DNA of 64,000 nt from an uncultured Clostridia bacterium (GCA_948934525.1 CAQZSK010000001.1:222574-286573), one strand, 5' to 3'; positions 18,036 through 59,884 are shown, numbered from the stretch's first letter. The notes: generated by a model not told the origin, from the letters alone. Program-made: numbers and translations.

Positions 18036-18037
18036 AT

Positions 18038-34001: not shown

Positions 34002-34157
34002 CTAACTCCTTTTATTTATTAAATTCATTCCTTGTGCTATATATTTGTCTAACAATTTACTTTGCTTCAGTATTTTTTCAGGCTCTGCATTCTGTTCAAT
34101 TAATTTTGAAAGTTTAGAACGATTCTTAAAGATTAAAAGTCCAAGTTTAAAATCCAT
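34002..34157 (-). CDS. unannotated 51-aa Spo0E-like aspartyl-phosphate phosphatase family protein
   Basis: Hand translation gives MDFKLGLLIFKNRSKLSKLIEQNAEPEKILKQSKLLDKYIAQGMNLINKRS*. GGGAG SD 9 nt upstream. The S-(Q/K)-x-LD-x-x-I helix resembles the Spo0E SQELD motif. Below the ORF-track cutoff. Confidence 0.45.
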   Translation of the reverse strand: MDFKLGLLIFKNRSKLSKLIEQNAEPEKILKQSKLLDKYIAQGMNLINKRS

Positions 34158-34337
34158 AAAAACCAACTCCCTTCTTATTTTTAATTATATCAGATATTCC
34201 CTAAAAAGTCTGTCGGAATTTGTCAGTTACAAAAAAAAGTTAATTTTATAGCTTTTTTTGACGGTTTATGTTATAATAGCAAGTAAAATACTACTATTAA
34301 GTTACTACTATAAGCAAATTAAAAAGTGAAGGGTTAA

Positions 34338-34910
34338 TTGGTTGTAAAAATGAATAAGAGTAAGAAAATAATTATTTGGATTTTAATTTTAGTATCGATT
34401 ATAGTTATTGGTGTAATTTTTGCACCTAAGTTAATTGAAAACAATGAATTTTTCAAGTTCATAGCTAAAGATACTAATTCTAATTCAGTTGAAACAGTAA
34501 ATCACGAAAAAAATAAGCAAAATTATTCTAAAGTGATTGATAATATTAAATTGGAATTAAATATTCCAAATGAGTGGAAATATGAAGAAATACCTAAAAA
34601 TGAAGAAAACGATTTTTATAAATATGCTTTAAAACTATATAAAAGCAATGAAAATCAATATGCAATGTTATATTTTTATAATAATCAATTTAGTGTTTGT
34701 GGTACAGGAAGAACTTTAAAAAACGTAAATCTAAATAATGGTAAAGAAATGTCTATTGGGTATTATGACGGAAAAAAAGACTGGAGCGACATTTCATTTA
34801 ATAATATAAATAAAAACATAGCAGTTATGAATTATGGTTTAACAGATGCCGATGCTAATGAGGTAATACAATTTATTAAAACAATACACATTATTGAAAA
34901 TAATTTATAA
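34338..34910 (+). CDS. membrane-anchored extracytoplasmic protein, unknown function
   Basis: Signal-anchor KKIIIWILILVSIIVIGVIF. The likely start is ATG 34350. Confidence 0.5.
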   Translation: MVVKMNKSKKIIIWILILVSIIVIGVIFAPKLIENNEFFKFIAKDTNSNSVETVNHEKNKQNYSKVIDNIKLELNIPNEWKYEEIPKNEENDFYKYALKLYKSNENQYAMLYFYNNQFSVCGTGRTLKNVNLNNGKEMSIGYYDGKKDWSDISFNNINKNIAVMNYGLTDADANEVIQFIKTIHIIENNL

Positions 34911-34961
34911 GTAATTGCAAAATGTAAGTTATCAGTTAGAAATAGTAGGTATGCCAACCTA

Positions 34962-35345
34962 CTATTTTCTAATTTTTTCCATATTATTTTTTAAATATTC
35001 TTGGATTTTCTCAATAGATTTTTTGTGCATTTTCTTAATCTTCTCAATATCTATATTTTGATATTTCATAGTATCGGCAATTAGTGCTTGTACTTCCTCT
35101 TCAGTCATCATAAAAAAGTCCAAAAATGCTATTTTAAAAATCAATTCTATATAACTATTCTCCCCTATTTCTCTTCTTTCTGCGTTTATTTGCTTCACTA
35201 TTTTATCAAATTTCTTTTTTCCATGTTTTTCTAAAAATAGTTTATTAAAATACATATCGAAAAAATCCATTATATCGCTTCCTTTTACATATATACTATA
35301 ACACTTTCTTACCAAGTAGTACCTTTTTATTTTACCAAAAGTCAT
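34962..35345 (-). CDS. hypothetical protein
   Basis: 127-aa ORF with no recognisable motif. Confidence 0.4.
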   Translation of the reverse strand: MTFGKIKRYYLVRKCYSIYVKGSDIMDFFDMYFNKLFLEKHGKKKFDKIVKQINAERREIGENSYIELIFKIAFLDFFMMTEEEVQALIADTMKYQNIDIEKIKKMHKKSIEKIQEYLKNNMEKIRK

Positions 35346-35461
35346 TTTTTACATACATAAAATCACAAAAATCTGTTGTAAATCAATAAAAAAAAATTTT
35401 TTAGTGTGTTTATTGAAATTCGGTTGTATTCTATGTAAAATGTATTTGTGTATAAGATTAT

Positions 35462-35562
35462 GTTATAGCTTTTTTACTATAACTACCCATAAAGTCAGTC
35501 ACTTTATGGCATAGCTGCTAAAATTTTTAGTTAGCAGTAGTACATCTACATTTTAAATGTAG
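35462..35562. promoter_or_regulatory. four consecutive hairpins in 100 bp (candidate oriT / single-strand promoter or initiation site)
   Basis: GTTATAG/CTATAAC (35462-83), CCATAAAGT/ACTTTATGG (35487-509), CTGCTAA/TTAGCAG (35515-37), CTACAT/ATGTAG (35546-62). They sit in a 416-nt non-coding gap upstream of the leading-region operon. Confidence 0.4.
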
Positions 35563-35761
35563 CATATTATTGGGATTTACGGTAAAATAAATATATAGAT
35601 TATTTGTTGTGCCTTGAAAAATAAGAAAGTAGTATCTTGTTAAGTCCACCCCTAACTTAGCGATATTACTTTCTCTTTTTGTTCCCAAAATCAAAGGAAA
35701 GGAGGATTAATCAAGAATCTTTTACACAAAAATTTGAAAGGAGATTTTGAAATTATGAAAA

Positions 35762-36118
35762 ATGGTTTTGATTTTGAAATGTATGGAGAAATATTCAGAA
35801 ATTGTTTTATCTTTGTTTCAAGATATGCCAATCGGTAATTTACAATTAAGTTTATTTGGAACTGATCCAAAAACAAATCAAACAGCACATTTTGCCGACA
35901 TTACTTTAGACCAAAATAATAAGAAATTAAAAGAAAATGAAATTGTAGTAAATTGCTTATACAGACCAGCTTTAATACCACAATTATTAGAATTAGGTAT
36001 CTTAAAAAAGCAGACTGGCATCTGTGTTGTTAATTTCACAATGTACCCTGTTTATACTGTCGATTTTTCAAAAATCAATTCTAGGCAGTATAGTGAGCAA
36101 GAATTGCTTGTCGCATAG
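35762..36118 (+). CDS. DUF4313-like small protein
   Basis: ...LSLFGTDPKTNQTAHFADITL...ENEIVVNCLYRPALIPQLLELGILKKQTG. Paralogous pattern to 37399-37767. The start is uncertain (ATG 35755 is out of frame; MEKYSE at 35783 is possible). Confidence 0.4.
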   Translation: MVLILKCMEKYSEIVLSLFQDMPIGNLQLSLFGTDPKTNQTAHFADITLDQNNKKLKENEIVVNCLYRPALIPQLLELGILKKQTGICVVNFTMYPVYTVDFSKINSRQYSEQELLVA

Positions 36119-36123
36119 AAAGG

Positions 36124-37296
36124 ATGGTAAAAATGAATACAACTCAAACCTATGTTAAAATGCCTGTAATTGGTAAAGTACAACACGGCGAAAAACTTAT
36201 AACTGATGATGGAAAGCAAAGAACCGTAGACTATGGCTATTTCATTGCAAAAATTCAAGAAGCGAATATGCAACAATACTTAGATAAGTTCAATACTCTA
36301 ATAAAAGGCTCTAAAAGTATCGACATTCAATTTCTTGACGATAACCCTTTGTCGGTTAGGCAAGAAAGGGCTAATCAAAGTGGAACAGTTTGTTATTGTA
36401 TGGAAGGGCAGAGTAAAGGAAAACAAAAGATTAAAAATTTATGGCAAGATATTGAGTGTAAGTCAGATTGTACATACTTACAAAAAGATACATATGGTAA
36501 ATCACCTTGTAAACGTATTGCCTGGTTAAAGTTCCTTATTCCTCAAATAGCATTAGACCGAATTTGGCTAATGAAAATAACCGGTCAAGAGGCAATCGAT
36601 AATTTACAGTCATATATTAGCTTTCAATACTTACAAGGAAACTCATTAAAAAATAATATTTATACTATATTTCTAACTCAAAAGGAACAAATAGATAGTT
36701 TAGGCAAAATTCATAATAATTATGTTTTAGATATCATACAAAAATCAGATTTTATTTCTCACCCTCCAATTTCAAATAATTCTCAAGACCCCCAAAAGCC
36801 TATCATTAATAATGACAAAACACCAACTAATACTACACAAAAAACAAGCAAGCAATCTAACAGTTCTAAAGAAAAACAATCTCAAGGAACTACCACAACT
36901 ACTAAAAGTTCTAGTACACCAGTTAAAAAAGAAGAAAAAAAAGAAACTACATCTCAGAAATCAGCTAGCAAAAAAGAAACTACAAGCAAGCCTAAATCTT
37001 CTAATCAAAAAAAAGCAGAAGAAAGCAACCAAGAAACTACAAGTGAGTATGATAATTGCTATGTGTTATTAAGCACTAGCACTGAAAAGATACAAAACAA
37101 AGAATATTTTGTAGCTGAATTTGTAGATATGCAAGATAAGACTTTAAAAGTTGCAATTCACCCTAACTTTGTAACCGAACTTTCTGAGTGTGAACTTGGA
37201 ACAGTAGTAAAATTAGACATTCAAGAAGTACAACAAACAAACTTTGCAGTTGGATTAGAATTTGTTGAAAAACATACAAAAAAAGTAGCAGCATAA
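36124..37296 (+). CDS. hypothetical protein: Cys-rich N-domain, Ser/Thr/Lys-rich linker, OB-like C-domain
   Basis: 390 aa. N-terminal KMPVIGKVQHGEK...DYGYF, a ~110-aa low-complexity linker and a C-terminal tail ...KKVAA. Confidence 0.5.
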   Translation: MVKMNTTQTYVKMPVIGKVQHGEKLITDDGKQRTVDYGYFIAKIQEANMQQYLDKFNTLIKGSKSIDIQFLDDNPLSVRQERANQSGTVCYCMEGQSKGKQKIKNLWQDIECKSDCTYLQKDTYGKSPCKRIAWLKFLIPQIALDRIWLMKITGQEAIDNLQSYISFQYLQGNSLKNNIYTIFLTQKEQIDSLGKIHNNYVLDIIQKSDFISHPPISNNSQDPQKPIINNDKTPTNTTQKTSKQSNSSKEKQSQGTTTTTKSSSTPVKKEEKKETTSQKSASKKETTSKPKSSNQKKAEESNQETTSEYDNCYVLLSTSTEKIQNKEYFVAEFVDMQDKTLKVAIHPNFVTELSECELGTVVKLDIQEVQQTNFAVGLEFVEKHTKKVAA

Positions 37297-37398
37297 GAAA
37301 ATAAGGTGTCTATGCTACTACATAAAATTAATTATAATATTTATATACTAAATAATTGATAAAGTCAATATTTTTAGAAAATTAGAAAGGAGTTTTTT

Positions 37399-37767
37399 AT
37401 GGAAACATTTACATATAAAAATTATCAAAACTGTTATTTTACAGTTGGAAGCTATGTAGCTGACACAACAGCTATGGCAATATCTATTGTTAATGACGAA
37501 GATGGTCTAATTTCAACTTGTACAATATATGATGAATTTGGTTTTTATGCTTCTAATTCTATAACTGTAAAAAATTATTCAGAAAATTCACATATGACAG
37601 ACTTTTTAAAAAGCTTAGGAGTAGTTATTGACACTATTGATAGACGTCCTTGTAATAGAAAAGTAGGCCATACATTATATAGTGAAAATCCACAAACAAT
37701 TGATACTTGTATTATAAATAAAGATATTCTAAAAAGATATTGTAAGGAGTGGAATTACAATGTTTAG
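37399..37767 (+). CDS. DUF4313-like small protein
   Basis: ...AISIVNDEDGLISTCTIY...ITVKNYSENSHMTDFLKSLGVV parallels 35762-36118. Confidence 0.4.
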   Translation: METFTYKNYQNCYFTVGSYVADTTAMAISIVNDEDGLISTCTIYDEFGFYASNSITVKNYSENSHMTDFLKSLGVVIDTIDRRPCNRKVGHTLYSENPQTIDTCIINKDILKRYCKEWNYNV

Positions 37768-37954
37768 TCAATTTCCTATTGGAAAAAAAGTTTTAGTAAC
37801 TGGTATTGGAAAAAACAAAGGCACAAAATATCTAAACAATATTGGAATTGTAATATGTCGTGATCCTTACTACCACGATTATAATATTCAATTTGAAGAT
37901 ACTTCGGAAGATTGGCTTAATGTAAATTGCCTAAAAAATTATGAAGGAGGATAA
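37760..37954 (+). CDS. hypothetical small protein
   Basis: 64 aa, overlapping both neighbours (operon coupling). Confidence 0.4.
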   Translation: MFSQFPIGKKVLVTGIGKNKGTKYLNNIGIVICRDPYYHDYNIQFEDTSEDWLNVNCLKNYEGG

Positions 37955-39947
37955 TATTATGAAATTAACGTATCTAAAAACAATTGGATTTAGAAAATTC
38001 AAAAATGAATTTGAAACTGAACTTTATGACATTACTAGTATCACTGGAAAAAACAAATCTGGAAAAAGTAATATTTTATATGCCATTGTAAACATTTTAC
38101 TGGGTGCAAATTTATCAGGAGATGAAAAAACTTGTCTTATCAATAATAAATGTGATGCTTCATATGGAGAATTACATTTTACTGATAATAGAGGAATTGA
38201 GCATATTCTAATTCGTGGTAAGGATAAATACACTAGCACCAAGAACTTCATTTCTCTTGATGGTAAACCAGTATCTCAAACAGATTTGATTAGCTTTTAT
38301 AAGGATAAGAAGTTATTTTTGTCTATTATCAATCCCCTATATTTTCTTAATAAGAAGCCTTCTGAACAAAAAGAGTTGGTCGATAAATACTTATCTGATA
38401 TTAAACCTAAAATAATCTTTGACACACTAACGAACCAACAGCAAAACAGCTTAATTGAGAAATATTTTCGTATTTCTACCAAAGAAATCTATCCTAAACT
38501 AACTATTGAAGATTTACAAAATATTTATGATGAGCATAACTTAAAATCAATTACAGGAAAGGATTTTACAGATATAGTAGATAAAGATAAATGGCATACA
38601 ATATGCGACAACATAAAAGAGTTGAGTGGCAGAAAGTATTATGAAATGCTTTCAGTCGAGGAAAGAGAAGATTATATCAACCAAAATATGTTAAATATAT
38701 GTATGTATATTGCGTTTGATAATTTAAGTCAAGAAGAACAAAATATTTTGGAAGTGATACCTTCTAATGTCCCATCATATATAGCGGAATTGAATACTAA
38801 TGTCAAAGAAACAGAAAACATTATCTCTTTATTAAAGGGGAAAATTGACTATGCACAAGATATTGTCAATTTTGAACTGCCTACATACCAAAAATTCGAC
38901 AAAGAAGAAGAACTTTCTCTTGCAGAGCAAGAGTTATTAGTCTTAAACTCGAATAAAAAAATTATTGATAAGGAAAGACAAAAAAAAGTAGTAGAAGAAC
39001 TTGAAAAAGATATTTTAAATAAGGAGACTGAACTTAAAGAGCTAGAAAGTGAAATGAAAAATGGTAAACAAAAATATTTATCAATAAAAAATGGCATAAC
39101 TTGTACTTGTCCTACTTGTAATCAATATATACAGGATGAAAGTAAGGAAACTACAGTATCAAATATGTATAAAGACTTAATGGCTAAATACGATAAAAAG
39201 AACTTATTAGAAACACAAATAAAAGATCAAAAGTTTAATCTAGCTATGGAAAAATGTAAATATCATTCACTAAAAGGTGAATCTACTATTGAAAAATCAA
39301 AGAGAATTATAGTTATAGAAGAAAATATCAAGCAATTAAAACATGAACAGCAAGAAATTGACAGATTTAACAGTGAAATTACTGCAAAGGAAAAAAGTAT
39401 AGAAAGTGCAAAATTAGATATAGAAAAGTTTAACAGCGAAATAAAAGCAAAAACTAAATTCATTGACAGTTTAAATCAAGCTAAAAGAATTGCTCAGAAG
39501 CTTTATATTTCATATATTGAAGAAAAGATGAAGCTAGCACAACAATATTTGAAAGACGTTGATATAAAATTCTACTCTGTTTTAAAAACTACTGGAGAAA
39601 TCAAAGAGGATTTTATTATTACATATAAAAATAAGGCTCTAAGTGACTTATCAAGATCTGAAACTATTGCTACTGCACTAGAATTTGCTAATATGTTTAA
39701 CAAAATAAGTAAGGTCAACTTTCCTCTTTTCATAGATGATTATGAAAGTTGTGTAGATTATAATTTTATTAATCAATATAAAAATAATGATCAATTATTT
39801 TTATCTATGGTACAAAAAGGTTCTCCATTAAAAATTGCTAACTATAATGATAATAAAAAGTGTACTATCATAAAAACAACAATTACAGGATACAGGACAA
39901 TAAAATTATACAATAAGAGTAATAATATACTTCAGCAAGCAGCATAA
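37941..39947 (+). CDS. Rad50/SbcC-like AAA ATPase with coiled coil and CxxC hook
   Basis: N-terminal KLTYLKTIGFRKF plus Walker A GKNKSGKS, a long Lys/Glu coiled coil with central CTCPTCNQ, and a C-terminal FPLFIDDYE (Walker B-like). The likely start is ATG 37959. Confidence 0.7.
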   Translation: MKEDNIMKLTYLKTIGFRKFKNEFETELYDITSITGKNKSGKSNILYAIVNILLGANLSGDEKTCLINNKCDASYGELHFTDNRGIEHILIRGKDKYTSTKNFISLDGKPVSQTDLISFYKDKKLFLSIINPLYFLNKKPSEQKELVDKYLSDIKPKIIFDTLTNQQQNSLIEKYFRISTKEIYPKLTIEDLQNIYDEHNLKSITGKDFTDIVDKDKWHTICDNIKELSGRKYYEMLSVEEREDYINQNMLNICMYIAFDNLSQEEQNILEVIPSNVPSYIAELNTNVKETENIISLLKGKIDYAQDIVNFELPTYQKFDKEEELSLAEQELLVLNSNKKIIDKERQKKVVEELEKDILNKETELKELESEMKNGKQKYLSIKNGITCTCPTCNQYIQDESKETTVSNMYKDLMAKYDKKNLLETQIKDQKFNLAMEKCKYHSLKGESTIEKSKRIIVIEENIKQLKHEQQEIDRFNSEITAKEKSIESAKLDIEKFNSEIKAKTKFIDSLNQAKRIAQKLYISYIEEKMKLAQQYLKDVDIKFYSVLKTTGEIKEDFIITYKNKALSDLSRSETIATALEFANMFNKISKVNFPLFIDDYESCVDYNFINQYKNNDQLFLSMVQKGSPLKIANYNDNKKCTIIKTTITGYRTIKLYNKSNNILQQAA

Positions 39948-40010
39948 AATTAATAATTTTGAAAAAGGCAGAGAAATCTGTCTTTTTTCTTATGCTAGAA
40001 AGGAAATAAA

Positions 40011-40820
40011 ATGATAATATCAAATGATTTCACAAAAGCATATAACACTTTATGTATTAATTATGGAGAATATAATGTATTTTATGATTTTGTAAAAATG
40101 TGTGCCATAACAATTTATAATTCATTTGCCAAAAATCAGGAATTAGAACAAGAATATCTACACATTATCAATTCTTACAGTAAAGAAGAACAAAAGCTAT
40201 TTCCTAAGATGTTTTGCGAATTGATTATGGAATTTGAAAGACAATATAAATTGAATGGGCCAACAGACATATTAGGTCCTATTTATGAAATGGAAAATTT
40301 AAAAAATGCACAACTCGGACAGTTCTTTACCCCATCTCATATTTCTAACTGTATATCAAAAATAACAATAAATGAAATTGAAAATATTGAACAGCAGATT
40401 GAAAAGAATGGCTTTATAACATTATGCGAACCAACTTGTGGTGCTGGTGGTCTGGTTCTCTCATTTGCTAGCACATTACAACAAAATAACATCAATTATC
40501 AAAATTCATTATTAGTAGAAGCTACTGATATATCTGATTTTTGTGCCTATATGACATATATCCAATTTTCTTTATATGGGATACCTGCAACAGTCTATTG
40601 TGGTGACTGTTTAACAAAAAAAATGAGATTTAAAATGGAAACTCCATTATTTTTTCTAAATTATTGGAAATTCAGGAGATTTTATACAAAGGATAAGCAT
40701 GATACATCAGAAAATGGAAAAAAATCAACAGAAATAAAAAACGTTATAGAAAGTGAAAACCAAAACCTAAATTTAAAGGAAGTTATAATAAAGGGTAATT
40801 GTCAAATTACCTTATGGTGA
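40011..40820 (+). CDS. HsdM/N6-adenine methyltransferase-like protein lacking catalytic motif IV
   Basis: LGQFFTPSHIS and motif I LCEPTCGAGG are present, with a motif II/III-like VEATDISDFCAYMTYIQFSLYGIPATVYCGDCLT. No (N/D)PP(Y/F/W) anywhere, and no TRD. Confidence 0.55.
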   Translation: MIISNDFTKAYNTLCINYGEYNVFYDFVKMCAITIYNSFAKNQELEQEYLHIINSYSKEEQKLFPKMFCELIMEFERQYKLNGPTDILGPIYEMENLKNAQLGQFFTPSHISNCISKITINEIENIEQQIEKNGFITLCEPTCGAGGLVLSFASTLQQNNINYQNSLLVEATDISDFCAYMTYIQFSLYGIPATVYCGDCLTKKMRFKMETPLFFLNYWKFRRFYTKDKHDTSENGKKSTEIKNVIESENQNLNLKEVIIKGNCQITLW

Positions 40821-40838
40821 TAGTAAGGAGACATAAAA

Positions 40839-41274
40839 ATGGAAGTATTTAAACAAAAACTATTATTAGTTAAAGAACAATCTTTTGATTATGAGCAAAA
40901 GGTTACAAATTCAACAGAAGTTATTAATTTTATTAGAGATATTTTAAAATTGCAAAATGAATTTCAAGAAGTAGTATATGTATTGTTACTTAATAACCAA
41001 AACCGAATTGTTGGTTTTTCAGAAATTGCAAGACGGTGGTGCAAACTGGTGCAATTTTTCACAAAGTGAATTATTCAAGACAGTGTTATTTAGTAATAGT
41101 TCAAAATTTATTCTCGTACATAACCATCCGTCTGGAAATGCAAAGCCAAGTGAAAGTGATTATGAAATGACTAGAAAAGTTTTACAAGTTGCTAGACTTT
41201 TAGCCTTACAATTTCTTGATCATATTGTAATAGGAGATAATCAACATACATCAATAATGAGTGAAATGCAATAA
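40839..41274 (+). pseudogene. RadC-like JAB/MPN domain protein, frameshifted
   Basis: ORF 40839-41069 (..VVYVLLLNNQNRIVGFSEIA) and ORF 40978-41274 (..DGGANWCNFSQSELF..ILVHNHPSGNAKPSESDYEMT..LDHIVIG) together give a complete RadC. The frame changes near 41030. Confidence 0.7.
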
Positions 41275-41298
41275 ATTTAAAATGAAAGGAAAATACAC

Positions 41299-41715
41299 AT
41301 GAAAATTAAAGTTTTATTAGTAATACCAGGAAAAGAAGTTCAAATCGTTAAGTTGCCATCTGCAAACAAATTTATCAAATCTTTTATAGGAAAAAATCTA
41401 TATAAAATAAGTTTAGATGATGAAACTGCACTTATTGCAAGTCATAGTGCACAACTAGAAGAATTTAACAGAATTTACAAAGGAGATATTATTTTCGGTT
41501 CGTTTTTAGTAATTGGTACTAAAAATAATCATAATATCTCTCTAAAAAAGAAACAAATTCGCAAATTTACTAATATGTTTAAATTAAACAAACATCAGAA
41601 GAAAATTGAGAAATATAAACAAGAATTTCTCGAAGAATTTTATTTTAATCAGAAATTAAATAAACAAAAAAATGCTGTGGCAAATAAAAATCAAATTTTT
41701 AATGTAGCAGCATAA
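41299..41715 (+). CDS. DUF3846-like protein
   Basis: MKIKVLLVIPGKEVQIVKLPS...IIFGSFLVIGTKN resembles DUF3846 of conjugative elements. The tail is ...NVAA. Confidence 0.45.
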   Translation: MKIKVLLVIPGKEVQIVKLPSANKFIKSFIGKNLYKISLDDETALIASHSAQLEEFNRIYKGDIIFGSFLVIGTKNNHNISLKKKQIRKFTNMFKLNKHQKKIEKYKQEFLEEFYFNQKLNKQKNAVANKNQIFNVAA

Positions 41716-41731
41716 GAAAGGATGATTTTAA

Positions 41732-42382
41732 ATGAGTAAATTTTTAGTAATGGTTATTTTAAAACCAGATATAAAAACATCAAGGCTTAATTCTATTCAA
41801 AGTGGAATTATAAATATGTTTGAACAGAATACAAAAGTCAAACAAATATGGTACTTAGGAAAAGAGAAACTAGATTTTAAAGATAAGCAATATACTGAAG
41901 GTATATATATAAAGTTAGATATTGCTAGCAATTCTAAAAAAGTAGAAAAACTTAGAACTGAATTACGTAAAAATAGAGATATTCTATCTTCTATTATTAT
42001 GAATAACGATAGTGAAAAAAAATCTAGATTACCAAATTTAAAAATGCGAAAATTTCCTTTTTATAAGAATATACCAATAAATAATATTTTGGTAGCTAAT
42101 AATGGCAAAAAAATATATATGCTTATAAATAAAAATATAAGGTTACCTTTTTGCGAATCTGACATTATTGCAATTAGTGAAAGTGAAAACAAAATATTAG
42201 AAATTGCAAATAAAAAACTGCAAGAGTATATCTATATTAAAGGATTTCATACTTTAAAACCTTTCAAAATCATAAAAGAAGTTGAAAAAGAACTGAAAGT
42301 CCATAGGAAGGTTCAGTTTGTATTAGATAATAATTCTAATATAGGACAAGAACTAATAATACAAGAGAAAGATTTAATTTAA
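41732..42382 (+). CDS. ribosomal protein S6-like N-terminal domain fused to an unknown ~120-aa C-terminal domain
   Basis: The first ~95 aa, MSKFLVMVILKPDI...YLGKEKLDFKDKQYTEGIYIKLDIAS...KVEKLRTELRKNRDILSSIIM, align by eye with RpsF (MRKYEVMYIIRPNI...DWGKRRLAYEINDFRDGFY..). Located directly upstream of ssb. Confidence 0.55.
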   Translation: MSKFLVMVILKPDIKTSRLNSIQSGIINMFEQNTKVKQIWYLGKEKLDFKDKQYTEGIYIKLDIASNSKKVEKLRTELRKNRDILSSIIMNNDSEKKSRLPNLKMRKFPFYKNIPINNILVANNGKKIYMLINKNIRLPFCESDIIAISESENKILEIANKKLQEYIYIKGFHTLKPFKIIKEVEKELKVHRKVQFVLDNNSNIGQELIIQEKDLI

Positions 42383-42399
42383 GAAAGGAGAAAAAAATT

Positions 42400-42837
42400 A
42401 TGAATAAAATAATTTTATTAGGTAGATTAACAAAAGCACCAGAGATAAGATTTACACAAAGTAATAATAACAAAGTAGCACTATTTACACTTGCGGTAAA
42501 CAGGAAATATGTAAAACAAGGAGAGGAAAGACAAGCTGATTTCTTTAACATTGTGGCTTATTCAAGGTTAGCGGAACTCGCTGAAAAATATTTGCATCAA
42601 GGACTTCAAATTTGCATTAGTGGTAGACTTCAAAATAGAAATTATGAGGACAAAAATGGTGTAACACGATATGTAACAGAAGTAATTGCAGAAGAAGTCT
42701 ACTTTGCTGATAGTCAGAAAAAAGCTGATGAAAGTATTTTGTATTCAAATAATTCGGTAAATACTAATGATTCACAAGTAGAAAATACGAAGGTATCTGA
42801 AGAATTTAACTTAGATTCTGATGATCTCCCATTTTAA
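42400..42837 (+). CDS. ssb: single-stranded DNA-binding protein
   Basis: MNKIILLGRLTKAPEIRFT OB fold, and an acidic C-terminal tip DSDDLPF. Confidence 0.9.
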   Translation: MNKIILLGRLTKAPEIRFTQSNNNKVALFTLAVNRKYVKQGEERQADFFNIVAYSRLAELAEKYLHQGLQICISGRLQNRNYEDKNGVTRYVTEVIAEEVYFADSQKKADESILYSNNSVNTNDSQVENTKVSEEFNLDSDDLPF

Positions 42838-42893
42838 ATGACAGAGAAATTATATCAAAACAGCCAAATAAAAAGAAAAGGAGAATTGAAAAA

Positions 42894-43043
42894 ATGATAT
42901 TTGTAGTTACGTTAGAAGATATAATAGAATTATGTCTAATCACAGCTTTTGCTGTAGGAAGCATAATTTATATTATATATGAGCTTGCGAAAGTCAAAGT
43001 AGAAAATAGAAAAAAACAAAATAGGAAGGAAGTGAAATCATAA
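42894..43043 (+). CDS. unannotated 49-aa single-TM peptide
   Basis: Hand translation gives MIFVVTLEDIIELCLITAFAVGSIIYIIYELAKVKVENRKKQNRKEVKS*. AAAGGAGA SD ~9 nt upstream. Confidence 0.35.
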   Translation: MIFVVTLEDIIELCLITAFAVGSIIYIIYELAKVKVENRKKQNRKEVKS

Positions 43044-43160
43044 TTATCCTATAATAGGTTATATCAGCTATGAAGAATATGATATGTAAAATATATGACT
43101 TTGACACATTAAATGTGTAGTAGAGTATGTTGCCATAAATAGATAAATTTATGGCTAATT

Positions 43161-43871
43161 ATGAAATATATAGCAAGTGTGAGCTTTGGAAAAGACAGTT
43201 TAGCAATGTTATTGATACTAATAGAAAAAGGCATGCCCCTTGATGAGGTGATTTTTTATAATACTGGTATGGAATTTCAAGCTATCTATGATGTTTGCAA
43301 AAAAGTAAGAAAAATACTAAAGAAAAACAACATAATTTATACTGAATTAAAACCATCCACCACTTTTTTATATAAAATGTTGAAAAAAAACGTACAAAAA
43401 AGAGATGGTGCAACACAATGCGGTTACGGAATTTGCGGTGGCAAGTGCCGTTGGGGAACAAATGATAAGAATATTGCAATAAGCAAATATTTGAAACAGA
43501 AATATGGAAATGAATATTACGAATATATCGGAATTGCAGCAGATGAGCAGAAAAGAATTGACCAGAGACGACCTCCAACTAAACTACTACCTTTAGTAGA
43601 ATGGAATATGACTGAGAAAGACTGCTTAGAATACTGTTATAAACATCAATTCTATTGGGAAGAAAATGGTATCAGATTGTACGAAGTATTAGATAGAGTG
43701 AGCTGTTGGTGCTGCTCTAACAAAAATAAGAAAGAACTAGACAATATGTTTTATTACTTACCTAATTACTATTTGAAAATTATAGGATTGCTAAAAGAAA
43801 TAAAAAGGAATAATAAGAGAGATAGCATCGTAGTAAAGAAAGTAGAAGAATTTTATTTAAAAATGCTTTAA
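43161..43871 (+). CDS. PAPS reductase/PP-loop ATPase family protein
   Basis: PP-loop variant SVSFGKDS near the N-terminus and a C-terminal Cys cluster (CWCC). Confidence 0.65.
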   Translation: MKYIASVSFGKDSLAMLLILIEKGMPLDEVIFYNTGMEFQAIYDVCKKVRKILKKNNIIYTELKPSTTFLYKMLKKNVQKRDGATQCGYGICGGKCRWGTNDKNIAISKYLKQKYGNEYYEYIGIAADEQKRIDQRRPPTKLLPLVEWNMTEKDCLEYCYKHQFYWEENGIRLYEVLDRVSCWCCSNKNKKELDNMFYYLPNYYLKIIGLLKEIKRNNKRDSIVVKKVEEFYLKML

Positions 43872-43920
43872 CTATGTGAAAGCTATTTTTGAACTAAAAA
43901 ATATATAGGAGGAATAAAAA

Positions 43921-44196
43921 ATGCAAACAAACATTATAAGTGTAAAATATGAAGATAATTTTGAGAAAAAAACATTTAGTGGTAAGGCATATAGTTATTA
44001 CACTGCTATACCTGTTAAGGTTGGCGATTTAGTAATTGCTCCTACCGCTTTTGTTGAAAAAATTGCAAGAGTATCAACTATTGATATTCCTGAAGAACAA
44101 GTAGAAAGTATCAAACCATATTTAAAAACTGTTGAGCGAGAAATTGATAAGGAAAAATACTTACAGACCGGTGAAATAGTAGAAAAGGCGGCTTAA
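43921..44196 (+). CDS. hypothetical small protein
   Basis: 91 aa with a good SD (AGGAGG). The tail is ...VEKAA. Confidence 0.45.
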   Translation: MQTNIISVKYEDNFEKKTFSGKAYSYYTAIPVKVGDLVIAPTAFVEKIARVSTIDIPEEQVESIKPYLKTVEREIDKEKYLQTGEIVEKAA

Positions 44197-44197
44197 T

Positions 44198-44603
44198 ATG
44201 AGTGGAACTGATGTTGTAAGTATTTTAATTCCTCAGTTATTAAACTTAGGTTTTATTGTACATCGCTATAATTCATATTCTACCAGTTCAATTTATTTAA
44301 AATTGGATTACCGGTGTGGCCTGTGGCATTCGTATTGCAGACCATCCAGGCAAGAAAAAATATAATTATAGATTCAATATCATAAAGGATTATATTGGAA
44401 ATAAGGTCATCATCAAAGATGGCCTTGTTTGTCGCTTTTATGGCTTTAATGAACTAGATGATGTACTTACTGCAATTCAAAAAGAAAAGCAAGACAAAAT
44501 CGGAAAATATGGTTTACAAAATTATCAAAAATATATGGAAAAAGATTCTAAAAATGAATTATATAAGAGATTTAAAGAAGTGAGAGGAGAAACAAATAAA
44601 TGA
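44198..44603 (+). pseudogene. hypothetical protein interrupted by a 1-nt insertion
   Basis: ATG 44198 opens MSGTDVVSILIPQLLNLGFIVHRYNSYSTSSIYLKLDY. Removing one C at 44311/44312 joins it to GVACGIRIADHPGKKKYNYRF... (ORF 44316-44603). Confidence 0.45.
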
Positions 44604-45019
44604 ACGGTTTTGAACGATTAAAAAACATGTTAGATGAATGGAAAAAGGATCATGGCGAAGACGAAGCATTTAACGAAACTGTTAATTATCTATTAAATAG
44701 ACCTGATTTAGAGACAAAATTTCTTAATGACGAAAAGTCTCTAGATGGCTTACATGATTTTATACATGACAAAGGTCAAAAACATTGTCTTAATGGTTGG
44801 TGCTATATTACAAATGAAGTAATTTTTGCCTGGGCTGTAATGTACTTCTCATTGCCAAATGCTCTATTAAAAATTACCTCTCCAAAGAAAAAAGAGGATA
44901 ATAAGGTAGAAAAAACAAACAAACAAACTACTAATGTCATTTCTATTGAACAAGCAAAGAAAAAAATTGAAGAAAAGAAAAATGACCAAATTTCTTTGTT
45001 TGGAGGTGCAACAGTATGA
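44600..45019 (+). CDS. PcfK-like protein
   Basis: 139 aa. FNETVNYLLNRPDLETKF...NGWCYITNEVIFAWAVMYF fits my recollection of PF14058. Followed by a PcfJ-like gene, as in pCF10. Confidence 0.5.
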   Translation: MNGFERLKNMLDEWKKDHGEDEAFNETVNYLLNRPDLETKFLNDEKSLDGLHDFIHDKGQKHCLNGWCYITNEVIFAWAVMYFSLPNALLKITSPKKKEDNKVEKTNKQTTNVISIEQAKKKIEEKKNDQISLFGGATV

Positions 45020-46587
45020 AACAGGAAAAAATTGATGAACTAATGCTTAAAATAGATAAAAAGTGCAAACTTCCAAAATATTGGGAACAATTTATTAAAG
45101 AAAATTTTAAAAGTCATCATCTTATCATAAAAGATAAGGAAAAGAAAAAACTTTATTGCTCTAATTGCAATAGATATTTTGCTGATAAAACAGTAAAAGT
45201 TCGTGATTATGTGGAATGTCCTCATTGTCATAAGATGTCATGTGTGTATGGAATAAATTATTATAGAAAATCCTTTGAACAATCTGTCGTATTAGTTCAA
45301 AGAGTAGACAAACAAATTGTTATAAGAATATTTGAAATATATTCTTATTTTAAAGAAGGAAAAAAGAGAATAAAAAGAAGTTGTATAGAGTACGCAAGGA
45401 TCCTTCCTGGTATTGGTAGATTTATTGGTAATAATGTTTGGATCAATATGTTTGGAGTTTTAAATGTATATCATGGCTATAAAAAACTTAGTTGGACTGC
45501 ATATAAAGGACATAAATTTTTGACAGACCATCCTACATATCCATACGACAAAAAAAGACTTGTAAAAGGTACAATTATGGAATATGCACCTATTAGCGAA
45601 TTTATGGATAGATTTTCATACTATCGTTACAACTATTTGGATGTATTAGAACTTGCTGCCTATGGAAGTTTTGAATTGCTATGGAATATGAAATTATATA
45701 ACTTGTGTTTTTATTCTAAAGCATTAAATAAAAAAGGTAGCTTTTTAAAAAGATTTGGCGTACCTAAGAGTTTTTTAAAATTTATGCAAGATAATGATAT
45801 TTCTTATAAGGAACTAATGTTATTGCAGTTATTTCAAAAAGATGATAAAAAACTATTTCAAAAATACCGCTATACTAATATCAATTATTTGAGATTCTTT
45901 ATTAAAAATAATGTACTAGACGATTTCTTAAACTCTGGTATAGAGCTTAATTATACCAATATGCACCTTATAAAAGATATTAGTAAATATGTATCTTTAA
46001 AGAAATTGATGCAATATAAAAAGGGCTTGCAAAACCTAAATATCTATAAGGACTATTTAGAGATGGCGAAAAAGCTTAGTTATAATTACAAGTCAAAAAA
46101 AGATTTATTTCCACGCAATTTAATTGCTAGACACGATAAAATGCAAACTAAAATAAAAATCGAAGAAGATATGAATACACAATTTAAAGCATATCTAAGA
46201 TATTTAGAACTATCGAAATACACTTATTCAGATGATAAGTACATTATTTTCCCTGCTCCTAGTATTGATAGTATGAAAGATGAAGGAAAACAACAAGGTA
46301 ATTGTGTCGGTTATATGTATCTTGAGCCTTATATCAACGGAGAAACAGAAATATTTTTTGCCAGAAAATTGAAAGATGTTACAAAGTCATTTATAACACT
46401 TGAATACAAAAATAACCGTGTTGTTCAGAAAGAATTGCCACATTATGATAGAAATTTTACAGCTGAGCAAAATGCTTTTATAGACAACTGGATAAACTTT
46501 AGGCAATTTATAGATAAAAAAGAAATATATAAAATTAGAGATAACTTAAAAGTTGTGCAATATGATTTGAAGAAAATAGTCGCATAG
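45016..46587 (+). CDS. PcfJ-like protein
   Basis: 523 aa with an N-terminal CxxC...CPHC ribbon. The C-terminal MKDEGKQQGNCVGYMYLEPYINGETEIFFARK resembles the PcfJ core. Confidence 0.55.
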   Translation: MKQEKIDELMLKIDKKCKLPKYWEQFIKENFKSHHLIIKDKEKKKLYCSNCNRYFADKTVKVRDYVECPHCHKMSCVYGINYYRKSFEQSVVLVQRVDKQIVIRIFEIYSYFKEGKKRIKRSCIEYARILPGIGRFIGNNVWINMFGVLNVYHGYKKLSWTAYKGHKFLTDHPTYPYDKKRLVKGTIMEYAPISEFMDRFSYYRYNYLDVLELAAYGSFELLWNMKLYNLCFYSKALNKKGSFLKRFGVPKSFLKFMQDNDISYKELMLLQLFQKDDKKLFQKYRYTNINYLRFFIKNNVLDDFLNSGIELNYTNMHLIKDISKYVSLKKLMQYKKGLQNLNIYKDYLEMAKKLSYNYKSKKDLFPRNLIARHDKMQTKIKIEEDMNTQFKAYLRYLELSKYTYSDDKYIIFPAPSIDSMKDEGKQQGNCVGYMYLEPYINGETEIFFARKLKDVTKSFITLEYKNNRVVQKELPHYDRNFTAEQNAFIDNWINFRQFIDKKEIYKIRDNLKVVQYDLKKIVA

Positions 46588-46596
46588 GAGGAATAA

Positions 46597-47475
46597 TTGA
46601 TGAAACAAAAATCTGATACTAACAAGAAAAATAAAACAAAGGAAATGTATGACAAACTCGTTAAAGGGGTTACTCATATCATTAGCTCTGGAAAATACAC
46701 AGAATTTTTAGCATTTTCTAAATCTTTTCACCATTATAGTTTTAATAATCTTGTACTTATTTATTCTCAAATGCCAAATGCTACTAGGGTGGCAGGATTT
46801 AAAACTTGGGAAAAACTAGGTAGAAAACTAAAAAAAGGTGAAAAAGGGATACAAATTTTTTTCCCTTTGAAAAGAACTTATATTAAAAATAAAATCGCTG
46901 GTCAGGCTAGCTTAATTGATGATACAAAAGTTGAAGATACTCAGGAAATTATTGAATATCTTACATATAGACCCACTTATGTCTTTGATATTTCACAAAC
47001 CGTAGGAAAGCCTATTCCTGAAGCTTCATTATGTGAAAAACTCAACAGTAATAATATGAATGAATTTTTTGACTTTTTATTATCTTTCTCACCATATCCT
47101 ATTTTAGAGCAAAGTCTACGTGGCTCTTTATATGGATATTGGAATCCAAAAGAAAAACATATTGCACTTAATCAAAAATTATCTATTGACGATAAAGTTT
47201 CTACTCTACTACATGAATTGACACACGCCTTATATGATGATTTCGATTATCAAAATGATAAAAAATTGTCAGAAACCTTTGTTGAATCTGTCGCTTTTAT
47301 AGTGGCTGATTTTTTTGGTTTAGATACTTCGAGATGTAGTTTTGGCTATATTGCTGCATATGCAAGTGATGTTAAAGTTATTTTAGAGTTAGGCGATAAA
47401 ATTCAAAAAACTGCAAATCAATTTATTAAACAAATTAAAGAATATCAAGAACAAGGTTTAAAAATTATTGCTTAA
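46597..47475 (+). CDS. ArdC-like antirestriction protein (ssDNA-binding N-domain plus HExxH metalloprotease)
   Basis: YSFNNLVLIYSQMPNATRVAGFKTWEKLGRKLKKGEKGIQIFFP (DUF1738/ArdC-N) and LLHELTHALYDD. Confidence 0.75.
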   Translation: MMKQKSDTNKKNKTKEMYDKLVKGVTHIISSGKYTEFLAFSKSFHHYSFNNLVLIYSQMPNATRVAGFKTWEKLGRKLKKGEKGIQIFFPLKRTYIKNKIAGQASLIDDTKVEDTQEIIEYLTYRPTYVFDISQTVGKPIPEASLCEKLNSNNMNEFFDFLLSFSPYPILEQSLRGSLYGYWNPKEKHIALNQKLSIDDKVSTLLHELTHALYDDFDYQNDKKLSETFVESVAFIVADFFGLDTSRCSFGYIAAYASDVKVILELGDKIQKTANQFIKQIKEYQEQGLKIIA

Positions 47476-47546
47476 AATGAATTTAAAAAACAGATACAAC
47501 ATATTAGAACTATATTTGAAATTTAGAAAATAGGAGGTAAATAAAA

Positions 47547-47762
47547 ATGAGAAGAAAAAATAGAAAGGTCTCTGAATTAGAAAATATATTACGTAAGTAC
47601 TTTAACTTTCAAGTCAGTACTCCTGAAAATTATATCATTCAAAGAGATAAGGCATATGACACAATGATAAATTTTATCTGCGATTTATCTGAAACTGGTA
47701 TTGATGGAATTGACGAAGGAGAGCTCATAGATGAGCTAAATAAAATTATCGGAAGAGATTAG
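47547..47762 (+). CDS. hypothetical small acidic protein
   Basis: 71-aa ORF with an AGGAGG SD. Confidence 0.4.
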   Translation: MRRKNRKVSELENILRKYFNFQVSTPENYIIQRDKAYDTMINFICDLSETGIDGIDEGELIDELNKIIGRD

Positions 47763-47798
47763 TTTTTCAAGAATGTAAAATAAGAAAGGAGATTTTTA

Positions 47799-48822
47799 AT
47801 GAATTCATTAGACTTTCAAGAGGTATCTAAACATATTAGCATTGCTAATGTCGCTTACCATTTGTGCCTAGAAATTACTGAAACAAGGGCTGATGAAATA
47901 AAGGCTATTTGTCCTTTTTGTCGGCTACAATAAGAATTCCAAAATTGCTACTTTAAGTCTTAATGTTAGCAATAACAAATATTGTTGCAGCAGATGTGGA
48001 GCAGGTGGATATTCTATTGGCCTTTATGCTAAAGTTAAAAGTATTGATACGAAAAAAGCATATCGCGAACTATTAGATAGAGAATGTTTTTCTATAAATA
48101 GTTCACCTATCACTATTAGTCCAATAAATGAGCTTGCGGACATTGAAACAAGAGATAAAGTTTATAGGGCATTTCTGAGTATGTTAAAATTAGAGAAACA
48201 ACATCAAAACTATCTACGAAGGTTAGGATTTTTAGATTCTACAATAAATGAACAATTGTATCGCTCACTACCCACTTCTAAAACAACCAGATATATAAAA
48301 AGGCGATTAATTGCTAACAAGTTAAAAAATATGTATGATTTATTAGGTATTCCGGGTTTTTATCAAGAGGAAGATTGGATATGGACTTTTGCTAGTGGTG
48401 AAGGCTTCTTCGTTCCACTATTTGACGAAAATAACAAAATTCAAGCATTATCTATTCATTTGGATAAAGAATTTAATGGTACAAGCGATTTATGGTTTTC
48501 AAGTGCTGGAAAAATCAATGGAACAGGTACTAAAAACTGGATTAGTAAAAATAATATCAGAGAAGATACTAAAACTGTCGTAATAACTGACAGCTTATTA
48601 TTAGGTAATTTTATGAAAGCAACACTTAATATTCCTGTTATTAGCTTTTCTAGCATTGCTAATTCATATCAAATTTTAAAGTCAATTGATGGAACAAATA
48701 TACAGAATATTATTTTTACCATAAGACCTGGAGCAAATCAGAATTTAGATTATATTATTAGACGAATTTTTAGAGATTTGTTACCTTTGCGGATACAATT
48801 TAGAAGTAAAATCAGTAAATAA
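47799..48822 (+). pseudogene. CHC2 zinc-finger primase-like protein, frameshifted
   Basis: ATG 47799 ...AICPFC then a premature TAA (47931). Deleting C 47922 gives CPFCGYNKNSKIATLSLNVSNNKYCCSRCGAGGYSIGLYAK, continuous with ORF 48181-48822. Confidence 0.55.
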
Positions 48823-48933
48823 TTTTCAAGATGTTTTAAAAGATGATTTCTTGACTTTTTATGCAGTAAAAAAGACTGCATAGCACTATAAAATTATAAT
48901 AGACTAGCCTTGTATAAAGGTTAGTCTATTTTT

Positions 48934-49074
48934 TTATTTTTTATATTCCATTATTTCATTCAAGTTACAGTCTAAGGCATAACAAATTCTTGCTAATAAA
49001 TCTAAATCAGTTCTTTGTATGTCATTATCCACATAACTTTTTCGCTCTAAAACTCTTCTTTCCAAATTGTCCAC
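48934..49074 (-). CDS. possible 46-aa Cro-like HTH remnant
   Basis: GTG start without a clear SD. ...RTDLDLLARICYALDCNLNEIMEY resembles the C-terminal helices of XRE HTH domains. Divergent from the abrB-like gene. Confidence 0.25.
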   Translation of the reverse strand: MDNLERRVLERKSYVDNDIQRTDLDLLARICYALDCNLNEIMEYKK

Positions 49075-49172
49075 CTTTTATTTATCTTAGCACATAGTTA
49101 CGGTCTTGACATTTCCCAAATTAACCGTTACTATATATGTGTATTTTGGAAAAAAATGGGAGGTGATTTCAA

Positions 49173-58123: not shown

Positions 58124-59884
58124 TTAAAAATTATCCCAACTAATTTTTTCCTTTTTGATCACTTTTTCGCTTTTCTTTTCTTGGATTGTTATTTGCTTTG
58201 GATTATTTTTAATCCATTTTGGGTTATATCGTGAAATTGGACTGTCTTGTAATTTTATTGCAAGTGGGTGTTCTTTGTATATCATTTTATCCAGTAGTAT
58301 TGGCTTATTTCCACGCAAACTTAGCATTAACTTAGTAATTGGTAGCCTTAGTATCTCATCTACATTCATTAAATTTCGTTCTAATGTTGATATGTTCTTT
58401 TGTCCATATTCTTCCAAATCTCCCTCTAGTGAATTTGATTTTCGTATTGAACTAGTTTCAGCAGTTGCGACACCTAGAAGGTTACAAAAATATTGTGCGG
58501 TTAAGATATCTGTTGTAGACATATTCATTCGTTCGTCGCAATTTCCTATTATTTCATCAGATAAACCGGTTCGGATAACGATTCTCAAATTGACCGTATA
58601 TTTTGTAAAATTATAATTAGTGAAATTCCGTCTACTACGAACAGTACTAATCTTTCTGTTAAAGTCAGGAATTTGACCGAATATTTGCAAATTCATCCAG
58701 GAAAAAATATACTTCATTTTCACATTTTCCATTTTCTCTTGTATCAGCATACCTTACAAGTTTTATGAACAGGAAGGTATAGAATAGTGAGGCTATAAAA
58801 TCGAAGGATGCGTTCATATCACTTGTTATGACATAATAAATACAAGCCTCTTTTCCTGGTAGTGTCAAATCGATATCCGTTTCATTAGTTATTTTTTGTA
58901 AATCTTCATTTTGAAACATCTGTAATCTAGTTCCTAAGCCTGTGATAACACTTGCTTTTATTGTATCACTTCCTGAAGCAAATATATTATAGCTCATTTT
59001 TGCTGGACTATTTGATGGCATCTTTTTAAACATTTCGTCTAATTCTGTAATATCTCCATTAGCAATATTTTGATAGACATTAGTCAAATTATTATTGTCA
59101 GAAATATTTTCTAAAAAGTAAAATTCAAATGCTTTTAACAGATTTTCTTCAGCACGAGGCCAAAACTCATCACTACCATTATTATGCCTTTGTGTATTTG
59201 AGATAATAACATTTGCACTAGTCTGAACATCAGTAATATCTTCATTTTCTTTTAGCGGATTCCAACGGTCACTATGTCGCATATCCTTTAAGTTTAGAAC
59301 TTTGACTGTATATCCAATACTTCTAAAATAACTAGAAGTAATGCGATAAATCTCTCCGCTTTGGATCAGTTACTACCATTGATTTTTTGTACTTTGAAAG
59401 TTCTAGTAAATTAGTAATTAAAAAGCCTATTGTTTTCATACTTCCGGCTACTTCCAAAAACACATATATTTTTATTGAAGTACGATTGAAAAGGTAACTT
59501 AACAATATTTCCATTGTATTTTCCTAATATGATACCTGGTACTTCGTTAAAGCCTAATATTTTTTGCATTTCTTTTTCAGTCATCCAGTTTGCAGTTCCA
59601 TAAGTTCCATCTTCCGTCTTAAAATTAATTCCCTTATTTTGCTCTTGTTTTTTGAAAAAGACAAGTAATATGTCTAATATAATTAAAACGGAAATAATGG
59701 CAATTATGAGGCAAATTAGCATATATAAATTATTAGTTATAATAATATTTCTTCCAAAGCATTTTTCTAATACCTCAATATAATTTTTCACATTAAAGTC
59801 AAGCACAACATTTAAAATAAAACAAAAAAATAAAAAGATATAAAAAATTATCTTCTTAGGCATAGTAAATTCTCTCTTTCTCAA
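58124..59884 (-). pseudogene. VirD4/TraG-type type IV coupling protein, multiply frameshifted
   Basis: Four overlapping ORF pieces. They carry an N-terminal double TM, a degenerate Walker A (GSMKT..VVTDPK), Walker B FFLDEFANI, then IPDFNRKISTVRSR, IIGNCD and LRGNKPILLDKMIYKEHP. Confidence 0.75.

Follow-up and report, generated by a model that had tools for sequence, protein, structure and literature searches.

Conserved C-terminal alanine tails on the products of a leading-region-like gene block in a clostridial integrative conjugative element: candidate ClpX degrons

INTRODUCTION

Why do unrelated proteins encoded by one mobile element end in the same one or two residues? The question is raised by a stretch of 64,000 nucleotides of DNA from an uncultured Clostridia bacterium (GCA_948934525.1, CAQZSK010000001.1:222574-286573), which is referred to below as the window (64 kb) and in which positions are counted from the first letter. 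It contains an integrative conjugative element (ICE), and a run of co-directional genes of this element, at positions 35762-47475, encodes proteins with recurrent Ala-Ala or Val-Ala C-termini. A first-pass annotation of the sequence had recorded Ala ends in seven of 18 reading frames, four of them as Ala-Ala, together with shared terminal DNA at three of the gene ends. It had likened these ends to that of the ssrA tag recognized by ClpXP, and had named a conserved DNA or RNA motif at the stop codons as the alternative.

RESULTS

Ala-ending proteins are concentrated in one region of the window

When open reading frames (ORFs) of at least 70 amino acids (aa) were counted, all seven C-termini in the main region, 35762-47475, proved to be as the first-pass annotation had written them, with four of the seven ending in Ala-Ala (Table 1). 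Ala-ending ORFs amount to 7/18 in this region and to 4/58 in the remaining window (Fisher p = 0.0026); for ends of the [A/V/I]-Ala type the counts are 7/18 and 0/58, respectively (p = 1.5e-5). An eighth tail, which the first-pass annotation did not contain, was found in a broken primase-like gene, where a relic ..AVKKTA is present in another frame (codons 48875-48880, stop 48881-48883). Searches with the 118-aa product of the first gene gave no match in Pfam, PHROG or NCBIfam.

Ala had been described as scarce, and it does make up just 3.6-3.9% of the residues of these proteins. The content is 3.9% in the tailed and 3.6% in the untailed proteins, and this equality rules out a regional composition effect. 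The shared DNA was also located where it had been reported: the 10-mer AGCAGCATAA is present at 37287, 39938 and 41706 and nowhere else in the 64 kb, and all three copies span a stop codon. Its expected count is 0.27, and three occurrences were reached in 1/100 shuffles.

The tails are conserved in eight unrelated protein families

Using PcfJ, one of the tailed proteins, as an anchor, 32 loci from different species-level genomes were fetched (PcfJ identity 32-83%), and their ORFs were called and clustered into families. The relatives originate from metagenome-assembled genomes of uncultured Clostridia from rabbit, goat, chicken, deer and human guts. Eight unrelated families end in Ala in 83-100% of their orthologs (195/209 overall; Table 1), whereas for ~25 other conserved families of the 32 loci the figure is 0-23%. 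The first-pass annotation had suggested comparing C-terminal residues across homologous elements, where a lack of Ala tails was to count against its proposal; the comparison instead revealed a strong enrichment of Ala in the tailed families. It is also apparent in an independent protein-database sample of full-length PcfJ homologs (47-89% identity), 107/110 of which end in Ala. Among the remaining 584 genes of the loci, Ala ends were found in 33 (5.7%) and Ala-Ala ends in two (0.3%), and every remaining [A/V/I]-Ala end in this set sits in the same co-directional block.

Across the final ten positions, entropy reaches its minimum at the last residue in each of the tailed families. The residue at -2 is either Ala or Val, and those preceding it vary and differ between the families. 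The view that the tails are functional and ssrA-like, and not a product of chance, is thus strongly supported by conservation at the protein level in unrelated families from species-level relatives. Chance or shared ancestry was considered and rejected, since the families are unrelated, their last residue is the most conserved one and the neighboring families rarely end in Ala. Proteins encoded inside the block can also keep quite different ends: 28/29 orthologs of SSB, a protein with a functional C-terminal tip, end in ..[DE]L[PS]F and none is tailed, and orthologs of the S6-like protein keep a ..[LM]I end. The untailed SSB inside the block indicates that the Ala tail is specific to families and does not reflect the composition of the region.

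The codons used for the tails point to the level at which they are maintained. Across the orthologs, the last tail codon is GCA in 140 cases, GCT in 47, GCC in seven and GCG in one, and the corresponding counts at position -2 are 73, 67, 2 and 1. Inside gene bodies, Ala is encoded by GCA 1225, GCT 778, GCC 127 and GCG 72 times. The stop codons at tailed ends are TAA (163), TAG (43) and TGA (3). Since the tail Ala codons vary synonymously, to a similar degree as those in the gene bodies, with almost no replacements, selection acts on the protein.

The tails match ClpX recognition classes

The sole feature that the eight families have in common is [A/V]-Ala with a free carboxylate, in many cases with a hydrophobic or basic residue in front, and ClpX reads signals of this form. 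Two classes of C-terminal ends recognized by Escherichia coli ClpX provide a match: C-motif 1, with LAA (ssrA and YdaM), NAA, PAA and EAA, and C-motif 2, with RRKKAI (MuA), RAKKVA (YbaQ), HARKVA (PaaA) and others (PMC9775585). The ends in the window and in the orthologs fit either C-motif 1 (..QLAA, ..KNAA and ..KEAA) or C-motif 2 (..KKVA(A), ..KKIVA and ..LKNVA), so the resemblance to the ssrA tag noted earlier extends to both motifs and to LAA/LVA tags. In Bacillus subtilis, GFP carrying ssrA tags that ended in LAA, AAV or LVA was depleted 50-200-fold in stationary phase (PMC5009755), and the 118-aa protein in the window ends in exactly ..LVA.

Recognition of this kind would require an accessible C-terminus. 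PcfJ, the sole tailed family that was modeled, gave an AlphaFold model (from 29 sequences) with a mean predicted local distance difference test (pLDDT) score of 87, in which residues 509-523 scored below 50, and the PcfJ tail is accordingly predicted to lie on a disordered extension. The Pfam domains of DUF3846, ArdC and PcfJ stop well short of the C-terminus. The PcfJ model comprises an N-terminal zinc-ribbon/beta region and a C-terminal part that is helical and alpha/beta. No PDB chain matched it at E <= 0.001, which leaves the PcfJ fold without a PDB relative.

Based on these C-terminal sequences and on analogy with characterized ClpX substrates, we consider it probable, at roughly 60%, that the tails are built-in ClpXP degrons, or signals for ClpX-mediated remodeling, on establishment proteins. 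In the mechanism that we propose, at least eight unrelated proteins of the establishment module would have gained their tails in separate events. The host ClpX unfoldase would bind the free ..AA or ..VA C-terminus and feed the protein to ClpP, possibly with a contribution from further AAA+ proteases that tolerate a non-polar C-terminus. Proteins needed only during entry and establishment, among them the SbcC-like ATPase, PcfJ, ArdC, the primase, DUF3846 and the Gp3-like protein, would then be intrinsically short-lived and would be gone soon after transcription of the block stops. In a variant of this mechanism, the tails would direct ClpX to take nucleoprotein complexes apart, as happens with MuA. 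ClpXP recognition, the short half-life and the role in timing are what we infer here.

Tails have been gained and lost repeatedly

The most distant of the 32 loci (L041, positions 179-11431; PcfJ 32% identical) is also richly tailed, with 10/17 block genes encoding ends of the types ..LVA, ..LIA, ..MVA, ..QAA, ..LSA, ..KIA and ..NAA. The tailed genes of this locus include the methylase gene (..NLMVA), which is untailed in the other loci, and several genes that the window lacks. Some PcfK proteins end in ..FGGVA. Farther away, when 1.84 billion representative proteins were searched with a profile, an Ala end was present in 27/113 distant full-length PcfJ proteins (AA in 12, VA in four and IA in three). 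The Ala-ended ones are scattered among subgroups whose sister groups lack tails, and in the contexts that were recovered, the neighbors of a distant tailed PcfJ are often tailed as well. In the distant locus L051, for example, PcfJ ends in ..RKAA and ArdC in ..QVIAA, and 3/11 genes of L053 and 2/7 genes of L055 are tailed. PcfJ of the prophage-like locus L057 also ends in ..RKAA. The tail is a portable signal that has been gained more than once and is put to fullest use in this element lineage.

The tailed proteins belong to a probable establishment module of a decayed ICE

The window has a GC content of ~28%, and its host, which lives in the mouse gut, belongs to a group of uncultured intestinal Clostridia with low GC content. 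On the left, the integrated element ends at a tRNA-Arg(acg) gene and a tyrosine integrase gene (Table 1). A co-directional + strand block of ~20 genes at 33630-49445, which includes the region 35762-47475, encodes the Gp3-like protein, the SbcC/Rad50-like ATPase, an N6 methylase, a frameshifted RadC-like JAB protein, the DUF3846 protein, the S6-like protein, SSB, a PAPS-reductase-like protein, PcfK (of a family also annotated as AcrIIA9), PcfJ and the ArdC-like protein. On the - strand and beyond the right end of the window are genes for two sigma factors, a TraG/VirD4 coupling protein, SpoVG, an LPXTG adhesin, a sortase, PrgI and VirB4. The integrase at tRNA-Arg, the block genes and the coupling protein, PrgI and VirB4 together identify the element as an ICE.

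The genes of PrgI, the sortase and the adhesin lie past the window end, as do fragments of the VirB4 gene, which is split by frameshifts (L047, 1834-5897). Because the coupling protein gene is split in the same way (Table 1), the transfer machinery of this copy has decayed. The element is a fixed, decayed ICE in which the establishment block is still mostly intact. Fragmentation of the coupling protein and VirB4 recurs in several independent mouse-gut samples. The sequence of the element was found in many mouse-gut metagenomes. No near-identical DNA was found in plasmid and phage collections, and the viral contig collection contained no relatives of the element, which argues that it is not a phage.

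The gene content of the block, with SSB, ArdC, PcfK (AcrIIA9), N6_Mtase, RadC and DUF3846 all on the + strand, fits a leading-region module. A structured non-coding region lies directly upstream of the 35762 gene (Table 1). When folded as single-stranded DNA (ssDNA), it has a z score of -5.0 for the + strand and -3.7 for the - strand. Within it, three or four hairpins come after a promoter-like TTGAAA-17-TAAAAT (35413-35441), and both blocks of its sequence and the arms of its hairpins are kept in 22 related loci. Given this gene content and the structured upstream region, leading-region-like establishment module is a reasonable label for the block. No relaxase family match was obtained among the scanned window proteins and no relaxase was identified in the flanks; likewise, no nick site was identified and no origin of transfer (oriT) was mapped. 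In metatranscriptomes from mouse-gut RNA runs, coverage of the block by contigs was thin and patchy, and DNA carry-over is possible.

Several further features of the element and its surroundings were recorded. A frameshift divides the RadC-like JAB-domain gene at 40839-41274 into overlapping ORFs of 76 aa and 98 aa, and the same split is present in an independent metagenome contig (L005). The gene directly upstream of that of SSB encodes a 216-aa protein that contains a ribosomal protein S6 domain, and the two genes (41732-42837) resemble the chromosomal rpsF-ssb pairing. In one variant of the element, L004 (7197-11084), the region downstream of the primase start is replaced by two reverse-transcriptase (RVT_1) genes and a helix-turn-helix gene; this insertion at the block end may be a retron or another reverse-transcriptase-based system. 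A gene for an S1-domain (OB-fold) protein at 53872-54708 adjoins a DUF5697 gene at 53373-53882, and in Clostridium sporogenes plasmid pNPD7, an OB-fold nucleic-acid-binding gene and a DUF5697 gene lie ~1.3 kb apart, ~10 kb upstream of PcfK/PcfJ. The presence of both genes in the window and in pNPD7 indicates a backbone common to known Clostridium conjugative plasmids. In the related locus L032, the tRNA-Arg(acg) gene (21154-21230) lies ~9.6 kb downstream of PcfJ and not upstream, suggesting that the attachment tRNA is shared but that the element is oriented differently or is shorter. Elsewhere in the window, a PvuRts1I-like restriction endonuclease with an SRA domain is encoded at 9314-10237 (this family cuts hydroxymethylcytosine DNA), and in a nearby segment (12215-19225), a second integrase gene at 12355-13464 adjoins tRNA-Arg(tct), together with a Ser/Thr kinase gene. 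These genes have the appearance of a further integrated island, which may be a defence island.

Table 1. Features of the window, with the C-terminal ends of the tailed proteins and of their orthologs in the related loci
Feature	Position	Strand	C-terminal end or remarks	Orthologs ending in Ala	Typical ortholog ends
tRNA-Arg(acg)	29474-29550	+	left end of integrated element		
Tyrosine integrase, beside tRNA-Arg(acg)	29579-31054	-	left end of integrated element		
Structured non-coding region, 416 nt	35346..35761	.	directly upstream of 35762 gene; candidate oriT, ssDNA promoter or regulatory leader		
118-aa protein, no assigned function, first gene of block (118/127-aa protein family)	35762..36118	+	..ELLVA; tail codons 36110-36115, stop TAG	22/22, all [ILV]-A-A	..EL[IV]AA
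Gp3-like (PF18897) protein, 390 aa	36124..37296	+	..KKVAA; tail codons 37288-37293; AGCAGCATAA site	22/23	..KNIAA
SbcC/Rad50-like P-loop ATPase, 668 aa	37941..39947	+	..LQQAA; tail codons 39939-39944; AGCAGCATAA site	26/26, all AA or VA	..SKAA
DUF3846 protein, 138 aa	41299..41715	+	..FNVAA; tail codons 41707-41712; AGCAGCATAA site	24/25	..FKNAA
SSB, untailed control within block	42400..42837	+	functional ..DDLPF tip		
91-aa protein, no assigned function	43921..44196	+	..VEKAA (GCG GCT TAA); tail codons 44188-44193	27/29	..SKEAA
PcfJ-like protein, 523 aa	45016..46587	+	..KKIVA; tail codons 46579-46584	29/31 genomic orthologs	..KKMAA, ..KLVA
ArdC-like anti-restriction protein (ArdcN + zincin motif), 292 aa	46597..47475	+	..LKIIA; tail codons 47467-47472	25/29	..EEQLAA
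Primase-like gene (CHC2 zinc-finger start)	47799..48883	+	frameshifted over three reading frames; intact orthologs ~362 aa	20/24 intact orthologs	..TLKNVA, ..KLRKVA (also ..KNVA, ..KKVA)
Type IV coupling protein (TraG/VirD4 type)	58124..59884	-	two reading frames, three pieces		

DISCUSSION

Several observations weigh against the proposal that the tails are ClpX degrons. Their distribution is one: the pCF10-like Enterococcus plasmid region examined has no tails, those of C. sporogenes pNPD7 are vestigial (just ..KRIA in PcfJ and ..IISA in the ATPase), and three phage PcfJ homologs examined are untailed (..MAG, ..EDA and ..KHA). ClpXP is universal, yet the tails are patchy, and the reader may be specific to the lineage or the element. 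The genes for ClpX, ClpP and tmRNA (transfer-messenger RNA) were not seen in the window or the fetched loci (for tmRNA, the window and 35 loci); ClpXP is near-universal in Firmicutes. Half of the tailed families have a polar residue (K, N or E) at position -3, which in E. coli weakens ssrA-type binding. NAA and EAA are nevertheless among the natural ClpX ends (PMC9775585). Moreover, tail accessibility was modeled for PcfJ alone among the eight families, the transfer machinery in this window has decayed, and the assignment of the block to the first-entering DNA is presumptive.

The most interesting alternative is that the tails are translocation signals for the type IV coupling protein, so that the tailed proteins would be made in the donor and shipped together with the DNA. 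[A/V]-Ala-COOH would then be a previously unknown minimal signal of Gram-positive conjugative type IV secretion, through which the eight establishment proteins would be injected, and sensitivity to ClpXP would serve as clean-up in the recipient. The conjugative origin of the element, evident from the coupling protein, PrgI and VirB4, makes such a role conceivable, and signals for type IV secretion usually lie in an unstructured C-terminus, like the predicted disordered tail of PcfJ. Primases, ssDNA-binding proteins and anti-restriction proteins are kinds of proteins known or proposed to be transferred, and the tailed set contains a primase and ArdC; in an F-type system, recipients receive SSB, PsiB, ParA and ParB from the donor (PMC8406263). 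The concentration of the tails in one element lineage and their absence from the three phage PcfJ homologs would also be in line with secretion; however, these homologs come from other host clades in which plasmid copies are untailed too, so they do not discriminate between protease and secretion, and the prophage-like L057 does have a tailed PcfJ. Known type IV signals are longer and charge-based, with no two-residue Ala end among them, whereas the charge upstream of the tails is inconsistent (basic in PcfJ and the Gp3-like protein, acidic in ArdC and the 118-aa family) and only the last two residues are shared. No called gene on the type IV secretion side of the element lineage is tailed. 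SSB is untailed and the AcrIIA9/PcfK-like protein only partly tailed, though both would be obvious cargo. An exposed ..LAA or ..LVA would in any case be a ClpXP substrate in the donor, and the tails are intact here despite the broken coupling protein and VirB4. We therefore regard a translocation signal of this kind as unlikely.

The tails could also be docking peptides for a common non-protease partner that assembles the eight proteins into one establishment complex, the candidates being a hub encoded by the element (the untailed SSB, the S6-like protein or PcfK) or a peptide-binding domain of the host. Short C-terminal tips such as that of SSB do act as protein-docking sites, the ..DDLPF tip of SSB in the same block is conserved, and eight proteins of one co-directional block have one short, exposed C-terminal peptide in common. 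However, no PDZ, TPR or other domain that binds C-terminal peptides was detected in the block, a two-residue Ala motif is low in binding specificity, and the match to the ClpX motifs would have to be a coincidence, which leaves docking only a slim chance. Highly improbable in our view is a third possibility, in which the tails impose a competitive load on ClpXP and thereby transiently spare other substrates or blunt protease-dependent host responses during establishment. Such queueing by ssrA-type tags is documented for synthetic circuits (PMC12013620), and many co-expressed proteins of the block do bear the same ClpX-type end, but the idea is purely inferential here, would demand very high expression, and leaves unexplained why certain families are tailed and others never.

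Finally, we give next to no credence to the alternative offered in the first-pass annotation, a DNA- or RNA-level stop-region motif that would serve regulation, translational coupling or module recombination: the excess of three stop-spanning 10-mers over expectation and the somewhat over-used GCA as last codon (140/195 tail Ala codons as compared with 1225/2202 in gene bodies) are outweighed by the presence of AGCAGCATAA at only 34/209 orthologous gene ends, by the use of all four Ala codons and of both TAA and TAG, by different codons in 4/7 window tails (GTC GCA TAG twice, GCG GCT TAA and ATT GCT TAA), and by downstream sequences that are not shared, with distances to the next gene from 1 to ~100 nt. 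The junction that the annotation had proposed to follow at the DNA level is not conserved as such, nothing is conserved past the codons, and the three identical 10-mers of the window just represent the commonest codon combination.

If the tails are degrons, they would constitute a post-translational timer built into the establishment proteins of this element family, which would keep the SbcC-like ATPase, the primase and the anti-restriction protein from persisting in the cell that hosts the element. Work on leading regions has centered on the identity of the early genes and their activation from incoming ssDNA, and the switch-off of their protein products has been little studied. Degrons, ClpX and proteolysis of these proteins are unmentioned in a study of plasmid leading regions (PMC11541004) and its 2026 follow-up, and our search of the literature on degrons in conjugative elements yielded nothing relevant. 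C-terminal ClpX degrons are well known; as far as we found, the tagging of a whole mobile-element module has no earlier description. Degrons of this type would allow the establishment proteins of uncultured Firmicutes to be recognized from sequence alone, and would supply a graded series of natural degradation tags. That unrelated proteins have gained a two-residue signal repeatedly and independently is a clear example of a short linear motif evolving convergently in bacteria.

The block itself resembles the anti-defence islands of plasmid leading regions in its co-directional SSB, ArdC, AcrIIA9/PcfK-like and orphan N6 methylase genes and in the structured ssDNA region upstream (PMC11541004), and differs from them in belonging to an ICE of uncultured Clostridia, in which no oriT or relaxase was mapped. 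With the Arg-rich tails of Agrobacterium VirE2 and VirF and with proteins transferred by the F plasmid (PMC8406263), the tailed proteins share a C-terminal, probably unstructured peptide on conjugative-element proteins that act on incoming DNA; the known signals are longer and charge-based, unlike the tails described here with their inconsistent upstream charge. To our knowledge, no Ala-Ala type IV secretion signal has been described.

Among C-terminal signals read by ClpX, the closest counterparts of the tails are the ssrA end and the two C-motif classes, which reportedly go back to Flynn et al. in 2003. Both classes, a free ..AA with L, N, P or E at position -3 and a basic stretch followed by VA, AI or AS (PMC9775585), have counterparts among the tails. 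In contrast to the ssrA tag, however, the tails are encoded in the genes and not added by tmRNA, and a single mobile-element module has them on eight unrelated proteins. The Ala tails made by RqcH are a further parallel, and ClpXP was reportedly identified as the protease that reads them by Lytvynenko et al. in 2019. In Firmicutes, RqcH/RqcP add templateless poly-alanine to C-termini as a degradation mark (PMC8373112); those tails are placed on stalled chains, whereas the ones described here are templated, two residues long and found on full-length proteins. MuA, which ends in RRKKAI, is likewise a DNA-processing protein of a mobile element with a C-terminal ClpX recognition peptide, although there a single protein is tailed and not a whole module. 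ClpX remodels the MuA transpososome rather than degrading the protein. Native built-in degrons are also present in RseA(1-108), which ends in ..VAA, and in Caulobacter CtrA, which ends in ..AA. Streptomyces sigma-AntA is controlled through a built-in terminal Ala-Ala as well (PMC9775585). In these three proteins, an encoded terminal Ala-Ala like that of our tailed proteins constitutively destabilizes the protein, so that its level follows the rate of synthesis. Each of them is a single chromosomal regulator, whereas in the element described here a whole co-transcribed mobile-element set is tagged, with tails that have been repeatedly gained and lost.

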